DNA of 64,000 nucleotides, taken from NCBI RefSeq assembly GCF_003018115.1, contig NZ_CP027457.1; one strand, given 5' to 3'. The translations under genes were made by a program, and so were the position numbers. The notes beneath the pieces were generated by a model. That model saw nothing but the letters and a program-made list of their open reading frames with translations. It ran no database searches and was not told the DNA's origin. Below, piece by piece: positions 5,162 through 13,550 of this stretch (positions within the stretch are counted from its first letter, which is position 1; each line of letters begins with the position of its first letter). Source of the DNA: Escherichia coli (lineage in GTDB: Bacteria; Pseudomonadota; Gammaproteobacteria; Enterobacterales; Enterobacteriaceae).

Positions 5162-5237
5162 TGGTGGGTCGTGCAGGATTCGAACCTGCGACCAATTGAT
5201 TAAAAGTCAACTGCTCTACCAACTGAGCTAACGACCC
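5162..5237 (-). tRNA. lysV: tRNA-Lys (UUU)
   Basis: Reverse complement reads GGGTCGTTAGCTCAGTTGGTAGAGCAGTTGACTTTTAATCAATTGGTCGCAGGTTCGAATCCTGCACGACCCACCA. Confidence 0.95.
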
Positions 5238-5241
5238 GAAG

Positions 5242-5317
5242 TGGTGGGTGATGACGGGATCGAACCGCCGACCCCCTCCTTGTAAGGGAGGTGCTCTCCC
5301 AGCTGAGCTAATCACCC
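5242..5317 (-). tRNA. valY: tRNA-Val (UAC)
   Basis: Reverse complement reads GGGTGATTAGCTCAGCTGGGAGAGCACCTCCCTTACAAGGAGGGGGTCGGCGGTTCGATCCCGTCATCACCCACCA; which of the K-12 val paralogues it corresponds to is uncertain. Confidence 0.95.
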
Positions 5318-5361
5318 ACTTCTCAATTTCTTGCTACACGGCGGAGACTACATAAAGTAGT

Positions 5362-5437
5362 TGGTGGGTGATGACGGGATCGAACCGCCGACCCCCTCCT
5401 TGTAAGGGAGGTGCTCTCCCAGCTGAGCTAATCACCC
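5362..5437 (-). tRNA. valU: tRNA-Val (UAC), second identical copy
   Basis: Identical 76-nt sequence 44 bp upstream (in operon sense) of the first Val gene. Confidence 0.95.
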
Positions 5438-10724: not shown

Positions 10725-10730
10725 CAGGCG

Positions 10731-10764
10731 TAAAAAAGCCGGGGAATGATCCCCGGCTTTTTTA
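10731..10764. terminator. bidirectional intrinsic terminator between pdeA and nupC
   Basis: aaaaaagccggggaatgatccccggctttttt. Confidence 0.6.
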
Positions 10765-10773
10765 TGTATGGTT

Positions 10774-11976
10774 TTACAGCACCAGTGCTGCGATTGACGC
10801 AGACAGCACACTCACCAGGGTAGAGCCGTAAACCAGTTTCAGACCGAAGCGAGAAACCACGTTACCTTGCTCTTCATTCAGGCCTTTAACTGCACCTGCG
10901 ATAATCCCGATTGAAGAGAAGTTAGCGAAGGAAACCAGGAACACAGAGATGATGCCTTCAGCACGCGGAGAGAGCGTGGAAGCAATTTTCTGCAGATCCA
11001 TCATCGCAACGAACTCGTTGGAAACCAGTTTGGTCGCCATGATACTGCCCACTTGCAGTGCTTCACTGGAAGGAACACCCATCACCCATGCAATCGGATA
11101 GAAGATGTAGCCCAGAATGCCCTGGAAGGAGATGCTGTAGCCAAACCAGCCAGTCACGGTGGCAAACAGTGCGTTCAGCGCGGCGATCAGGGCGATAAAG
11201 CCGATCAGCATCGCGGCAACGATAATGGCAACTTTGAAACCTGCCAGAATGTATTCACCCAGCATTTCGAAGAAGCTCTGACCTTCGTGCAGGTTGGACA
11301 TCTGAATGTTTTCTTCACTGGCATCAACACGGTAAGGGTTGATCAGCGACAGCACGATAAAGGTGCTGAACATGTTCAATACCAGCGCAGCAACGACGTA
11401 TTTCGGTTCCAGCATGGTCATGTATGCACCAACGATGGACATCGACACGGTGGACATTGCCGTGGCAGCCATGGTGTACATACGATTACGGGAGATTTTG
11501 CCGAGGATATCTTTATAGGCAATAAAGTTTTCAGACTGACCCAGAATCAGGGAGCTGACGGCGTTAAAGGATTCCAGTTTGCCCATGCCGTTGACTTTGG
11601 AGAGCAGGAAACCAATTGCGCGGATGATCACCGGCAACACGCGAATGTGCTGGAGAATACCGATCAGTGCAGAGATAAAGACGATTGGGCACAGCACTTT
11701 CAGGAAGAAGAATGCCAGGCCTTGATCATTCATGCTACCAAAGACGAAGTTAGTCCCTTCGTTGGCAAATCCGAGCAGTTTTTCGAACATTTCGGAGAAG
11801 CCTTTCACGAAGCCTAAACCAACGTCGGAGTTCAGGAAGAACCACGCCAGTAACACTTCGATAACAAGCAGTTGAATAACATAACGGATACGAATTTTTT
11901 TGCGGTCGCTGCTTACCAGCAGTGCGAGAATCGCAACAACGGCAAGTGCCAGTACAAAATGAAGGACGCGGTCCAT
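10774..11976 (-). CDS. nupC: nucleoside:H+ symporter (CNT family)
   Basis: 400 aa from [11 protein letters not shown]; ORF-track start at 12015 adds 13 codons. Confidence 0.95.
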
Positions 11977-12240
11977 ATTTGCTCCAAATATGAGGCAGGT
12001 TAAATTTCCGTGCACATTCTATGTAACATGGTTAAGGAAAACGAGATCTGACACACACTATAATGACGTCCTGTGACAAGCTTCAAAAATAGTGATCTGT
12101 CATACATTTCTGCTATGTTGTGTATGGAAGCTGAAAGTTATGTAAATGTGCTAACATTAAACATAACCATAACATTCAAGTCATCAATCTTTTCGTAGTC
12201 ATAATCCTGGTCTATCAAAGAAATCACCACAACCCATTCA

Positions 12241-12262
12241 AATGAATTTGATAATCATTCTC
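12241..12262. promoter_or_regulatory. Fur box in the mntH promoter
   Basis: aatgaatttgataatcattctc resembles the GATAATGATAATCATTATC consensus. Confidence 0.5.
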
Positions 12263-12277
12263 GTTTGGCATAGCATG

Positions 12278-12299
12278 AAACATAGCAAAGGCTATGTTT
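12278..12299. promoter_or_regulatory. MntR operator (inverted repeat) in the mntH promoter
   Basis: aaacatagcaaaggctatgttt, a perfect 9-bp inverted repeat about 15 bp upstream of the mntH start. Confidence 0.6.
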
Positions 12300-12302
12300 T
12301 AG

Positions 12303-13550
<1,248 letters not shown>

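Follow-up and report, generated by a model that had tools for sequence, protein, structure and literature searches.

The mntH promoter of Escherichia coli K-12 carries a Fur box, an MntR palindrome and an OxyR site, which we take to be those described by Patzer and Hantke (2001) and by Kehres et al. (2000, 2002). In Salmonella enterica, the mntH and sitABCD promoters are likewise under dual control by MntR and Fur. E. coli mntH is repressed by Fe-Fur and by Mn-MntR from a promoter in which MntR, Fur and OxyR each have a site of their own (PMC8632737), and the same dual control is drawn in the model figure of Martin et al. (PMC4361602). Induction of the gene through OxyR is described in this literature as well. 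Further, the information-theory model of Chen et al. places a Fur cluster (two sites, 19.9 bits) at position -56 relative to the mntH ATG, approximately position 12256 in the coordinates used here (PMC2189734), and Gao et al. assign mntH to the core Fur regulon of nine E. coli strains from ChIP-exo and expression (PMC10164565). Counter-evidence comes from a plasmid-borne PmntH-egfp biosensor fusion that showed no Mn response, whereas PmntS responded (PMC9806134). The arrangement of Fur and MntR operators at mntH is already known, and indeed textbook.

The sequence considered here, referred to throughout as the window, is a stretch of 64,000 nucleotides from an E. coli genome (contig NZ_CP027457.1). 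A sequence-only reading had pointed to adjacent Fur and MntR operators immediately upstream of a gene that it took to be mntH, and this site pair very probably marks the core mntH promoter of E. coli, together with the two repressor sites already known for it (Table 1). The annotation bears out the identity of the downstream gene: the sites lie in the ordinary nupC-mntH intergenic region of E. coli, with nupC divergent on one side and mntH, ypeC and yfeO following on the other (RefSeq), the same neighbours as in K-12. Of 5426 complete E. coli genomes, 5424 contain the 355 bases between the nupC start and the mntH start, with identities of 95-100%. Four single nucleotide differences from K-12 MG1655 fall within the intergenic region (12079, 12218, 12233 and 12239), none of them in the Fur box, the MntR repeat or the -35 or -10 hexamers, and the Shine-Dalgarno sequence and start codon are identical as well; where K-12 does differ, three of the four changes lie in or beside the OxyR-like site. 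The sequence-only reading had also judged the regulon to be intact. This holds for the cis-regulatory module of mntH, whereas the regulon is not judgeable from the window because fur and mntR lie elsewhere; fur, mntR, mntS and mntP were not among the genes identified in the examined parts of the window, and sitABCD is absent from it.

Table 1. Features of the mntH promoter region, in window coordinates; identity is the mean identity to the window over 79 aligned loci
Feature	Position	Strand	Relative to transcription start	Mean identity	Basis or remark
OxyR-like site	12201..12237	.	-83 to -47		ATAATCCTGGTCTAT-N7-ATCACCACAACCCAT
ypeD	12242..12331	+			RefSeq CDS 'protein YpeD', 29 codons; overlaps both operators and first 20 nt of mntH
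Fur box (predicted)	12244..12262	.	-40 to -22		GAATTTGATAATCATTCTC
Fur core	12248-12262			0.98	
-35 hexamer	12248..12253	+			TTGATA; promoter scan; inside Fur box
Promoter spacer	12263-12270			0.56	
-10 hexamer	12271..12276	+		0.93	TAGCAT; promoter scan
MntR operator (predicted)	12278..12299	.	-6 to +16	0.95	inverted repeat AAACATAGC-AAAG-GCTATGTTT
mntH transcription start (A)	12284	+			SMRT-Cappable-seq, K-12 coordinate converted
Shine-Dalgarno of mntH	12301..12305	+	+18 to +22		AGAGG; read from sequence; 6 nt before ATG, conserved
mntH ATG	12312	+	+29		
mntH CDS	12312..13550	+			Nramp-family Mn2+/H+ symporter, 412 aa; ORF and RefSeq annotation
First ten mntH codons				0.81	
Unselected intergenic DNA	12142-12200			0.38	

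Outside the promoter itself, K-12 MG1655 carries IS186C beyond nupC, at the pdeA/nupC junction; in the window the insertion is absent and the gap at this junction is about 50 bp (10725-10774). Upstream of gltX, at 5165-5437 on the minus strand, the window has only three tRNA genes (Lys, Val, Val); the K-12 cluster at this place presumably comprises four (valU, valX, valY and lysV). Among complete E. coli genomes, no 25-kb match exceeds 98.7% identity, and the source strain is accordingly without a close representative among them.

The anatomy of the promoter can be fixed from two independent directions. A scan against the promoter consensus returned a single promoter on the plus strand, with the two hexamers separated by a 17-nt spacer. 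Supplementary Data 2 of the SMRT-Cappable-seq study lists a start for b2392 (mntH) at K-12 position 2512734 on the reverse strand (PMC6131387); with the K-12 mntH ATG at 2512706, this converts to 12312-28, or 12284, in the window. The mapped start lies 8 nt downstream of the -10 hexamer, in agreement with the independently predicted -35/-10 pair, and leaves mntH with a leader only 28 nt long. The supplementary tables of Cappable-seq, in the version consulted, list no entry for the mntH locus. An alternative promoter in which GATAAT (12250-12255) would serve as the -10 element was considered and rejected, as it misfits both the mapped start and the conservation of the TAnnnT pattern at 12271-12276. 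Set against this anatomy, the predicted Fur box takes in the whole -35 hexamer and reaches halfway across the promoter spacer, and so occupies the classic repressor position over core promoter elements of mntH. The MntR repeat begins two bases past the -10 hexamer, spans the start site and stops 12 nt short of the mntH ATG, and the position of this predicted operator is compatible with repression.

How well the Fur box stands out depends on the scale at which it is assessed. Against the 19-bp Fur consensus GATAATGATAATCATTATC, the element agrees at 15 of 19 positions; its 7-1-7 core, TGATAATCATTCTCG, has two mismatches, or 13 of 15 positions against TGATAATnATTATCA. No sequence in the 64 kb matches better, and none other has as few as four mismatches; since the element has exactly four, a strict search of the consensus allowing at most three returned no match. 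The Fur-box-like sequence that the sequence-only reading had begun at 12241 is present, the first three of its bases being flanking sequence. Chance rates for Fur matches and for repeats with 9-bp arms were derived from dinucleotide shuffles, per window and per 336-bp intergenic region. A Fur match with at most four mismatches is expected 0.25 times per 64-kb window and is present in approximately 20% of shuffled windows, a rate that lends some weight to the view that the Fur and MntR matches are no more than chance resemblances in AT-rich intergenic DNA. Given this window-wide expectation, the Fur sequence match alone is only moderately strong, and position and conservation carry the case. 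Within the intergenic region, however, the corresponding expectation falls to 0.005. The window also contains other Fur matches with five mismatches, which again speak for chance, among them matches inside an ORF at 56547-56571. These are two overlapping matches within an AT-rich ORF of 422 codons (55774-57042, minus strand) that has a tRNA gene (53465-53536) about 2 kb away, and they probably reflect chance in horizontally acquired DNA.

At the MntR site, the sequence AAACATAGCAAAGGCTATGTTT forms an inverted repeat that is perfect, as the sequence-only reading had described it; the arms measure 9 bp and the spacer 4 bp, and the repeat matches AAACATAGC-N4-GCTATGTTT exactly, a pattern for which 0.05 matches would be expected even with three mismatches allowed. 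For perfect repeats with 9-bp arms of any sequence, chance would supply 0.024 per intergenic region, and the exact MntR pattern is much less frequent still. In the literature, the abstract of Patzer and Hantke (2001) reportedly speaks of a 'nearly perfect palindrome', and that paper is cited for an Mn2+-dependent MntR footprint. Support for the repeat as the recognition element of MntR, independent of such reports, comes from the occurrence of the same motif at mntS and mntP. In the mntS-mntR region of K-12, the best match to the mntH repeat is AGATATAGCACAGGCTATATTA, located exactly on the 5' end of rybA/mntS and hence overlapping its own transcript start, a repressor position as at mntH. At K-12 mntP, two matches with three mismatches each, GAATTTAGCCAAAGCTATGTTT and AGACATAGCTTAGGCTATATTA, lie approximately 360 and 400 bp upstream of the gene, at which MntR activates rather than represses (PMC9806134). 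The mntS and mntP operators share ATAGC-N4-GCTAT with A/T-rich flanks with the mntH repeat; they differ from it in being imperfect, with three to four mismatches.

Conservation across the Enterobacteriaceae provides the more decisive evidence. A scan for the MntH protein with one genome per species yielded 80 loci from Escherichia, Citrobacter, Salmonella, Enterobacter, Klebsiella, Raoultella, Buttiauxella, Kosakonia, Atlantibacter and other genera, and the 230 nt upstream of mntH were aligned in 79 of them, most of which belong to genera other than Escherichia; together with the window and three extra E. coli alleles, the 80 loci form a set of 84 sequences. Both operators are near-invariant across genera, exceeding in mean identity the first codons of mntH itself and standing well above the promoter spacer and unselected intergenic DNA (Table 1). 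Because of this conservation, chance is excluded as an origin of the sites for all practical purposes, and its probability is negligible. The -35 hexamer TTGATA is invariant (79/79 loci). The -10 hexamer conforms to TAnnnT in 84/84 sequences, with changes confined to hexamer positions 3-5, and the spacer between the hexamers is 16 or 17 nt in all 84; retention of TAnnnT at such a spacing is what a real promoter predicts. Conservation extends nine bases past the -35 hexamer (ATCATTCTC) into the promoter spacer, an extension that a promoter alone does not explain and that is attributable to the Fur box. Within Escherichia, polymorphism is concentrated in 12263-12277 and both operators are spared. 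Between the arms of the MntR repeat, the 4-bp spacer AAAG hardly varies either (99-100% over the 79 loci). The perfect symmetry of the repeat, on the other hand, is a minority state found only in Escherichia, Citrobacter, Salmonella and Kluyvera, and the site does not depend on it: G12296 is replaced by A in 76% of the other loci, which renders the repeat imperfect.

Two Salmonella mntH loci (L012 and L013, from S. enterica arizonae and diarizonae) have the same perfect MntR repeat at the same spacing and a closer Fur match (TTGATAATCATTATC), and they differ from the window in an extra direct copy of the left MntR half-site, AAACATAGCA, which overlaps the -10 hexamer 12 bp upstream of the repeat. 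At the equivalent position, E. coli keeps only CATAGCA (12269-12275). The -10 hexamer TAGCAT may double as a weak MntR half-site.

An inverted repeat within a transcription unit might also act at the level of RNA, as a hairpin in the mntH leader serving attenuation, termination or translational control rather than as a DNA site bound by protein. A transcript initiated further upstream would indeed allow the repeat to form a hairpin of 11 bp immediately ahead of the Shine-Dalgarno sequence, with a folding energy of -21 kcal/mol over 89 nt (z = -1.9). The mapped start, however, lies inside the left arm, such that the main transcript cannot form the hairpin, and the leader taken from 12283 is without unusual structure (z = 0.2). 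The commonest substitution likewise runs against pairing, given that the partner of G12296, C12281, is 100% conserved and that the change to A leaves an uncompensated C-A mismatch. Further, no Rfam covariance model, including that of the yybP-ykoY manganese riboswitch or of any other leader RNA, matched 11900-12400 at E <= 1. A hairpin as the function of the repeat is consequently very improbable, and a binding site for MntR is the preferred reading.

A second rival places the selected function in protein rather than in DNA. The RefSeq annotation includes ypeD, a small ORF that covers both sites. Stringer et al. gave it this name following ribosome profiling and a western blot; the same authors noted peptides similar to YpeD in Salmonella and Citrobacter koseri (bioRxiv 10.1101/2021.07.02.450978). 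On these grounds, it could be proposed that the conservation described above results from selection on YpeD, with the operators being incidental. Codons 1-7 of ypeD coincide with the Fur box and codons 13-19 with the MntR repeat, and the similarity between genera is explained by conservation of the operators. The ypeD start codon is kept in 75 of the 84 sequences, but it sits within a conserved AAATGA flank, right at the Fur box's 5' edge. The remainder of the ORF behaves quite differently from a conserved gene: its length ranges from 8 to 43 codons across the 84 sequences, and the frame shifts with the 16- or 17-nt promoter spacer. Within E. coli, the window allele of the region is found in 3332 complete genome records, and two alleles with a stop at codon 9 are present, unchanged, in 727 and 285 records, which amounts to at least 1012 of approximately 5400 complete E. 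coli genome records. Of the seven third-codon positions within the MntR repeat, six show no variation, and the substitution seen most often falls at a first position, which is not the pattern of coding sequence. Selection on YpeD as the source of the conservation is therefore highly unlikely, and premature stops, common as they are in E. coli, speak for ypeD being a by-product of the two operators.

How ypeD comes to be translated at all bears on the same issue. Relative to the sole start mapped for mntH, its ATG is at -42, so that expression would need a different transcript. A leaderless ypeD mRNA was considered and set aside, since it misfits the mapped start and the conservation of TAnnnT. 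Alternatively, rare transcripts started further upstream could carry ypeD, in which case ribosomes would cross both operator sequences and end 20 nt into mntH. Such an arrangement would constitute a translationally coupled route to MntH that would be sensitive to roadblock by bound Fur or MntR, and only in lineages with a 17-nt spacer and an intact frame; it is an improbable scenario, if a little less so than selection on YpeD or a leader hairpin.

Upstream of the promoter, a third element deserves consideration. An OxyR site comprises four ATAG/CTAT elements spaced 10 bp apart, directly upstream of the -35. The OxyR-like site agrees with the consensus ATAGnTnnnAnCTAT-N7-ATAGnTnnnAnCTAT at 13 of 20 positions. 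No other intergenic position scores higher; in the window the score is tied second-best and is equalled or bettered at twelve other positions. It adjoins the promoter on the -35 side, as OxyR sites usually do, and its core CTATCA.AG.AATCA and an ATcGTT part are kept across genera. Together with the published statement of an OxyR site in this promoter (PMC8632737), these features make 12201-12237 the probable OxyR site of mntH.

One element on the nupC side of the intergenic region is also conserved. The block 12102-12139 (ATACAtTT.TG.TATGTT..GTA....GAAAGTT) is kept across genera at 0.73 identity and lies 11-48 nt downstream of a distal nupC start (K-12 2512868, equal to window position 12150, minus strand). 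It contains one MntR-like half-site (GCTATGTT) and agrees with 12 of 20 OxyR consensus positions. It was not adopted as a second OxyR or MntR site, being on the nupC side and approximately 150-180 bp upstream of the mntH start (-182 to -145). Proximal nupC starts are found at 12010/12009 on the minus strand, with a -10 hexamer TAGAAT at 12021-12016. A direct repeat, D1 (12038-12057 and 12087-12106), and the sequence 12073-12088 resemble pairs of CRP-type half-sites at approximately -40, -71 and -89. Judged from this layout, the nupC promoter (12009-12106, minus strand) would be of the tandem kind typical of promoters controlled by CytR and CRP.

The mode of control that emerges combines the present coordinates with protein binding and metal responses inferred from the literature. 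RNA polymerase uses the -35 hexamer TTGATA and the -10 hexamer TAGCAT to begin transcription at A12284. Fe2+-Fur bound to 12244-12262 would exclude the polymerase, whereas a dimer of Mn2+-MntR on 12278-12299 would block open-complex formation or promoter escape. Oxidised OxyR, bound to the OxyR-like site that adjoins the promoter upstream, would activate from the usual activation position. The dual repression of mntH by iron and manganese, as proposed from the sequence at the outset, is supported by the literature, by where the sites lie relative to the mapped start, by their conservation between genera and by the recurrence of the MntR motif at mntS and mntP. A mildly useful by-product of the analysis is the recognition that the annotated YpeD amounts to an in-frame reading of the two operators, Fur box and MntR repeat, which confounds its reported similarity between genera. 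More broadly, the strain has the usual cis-regulatory module by which manganese import is tied to the status of iron, manganese and peroxide.
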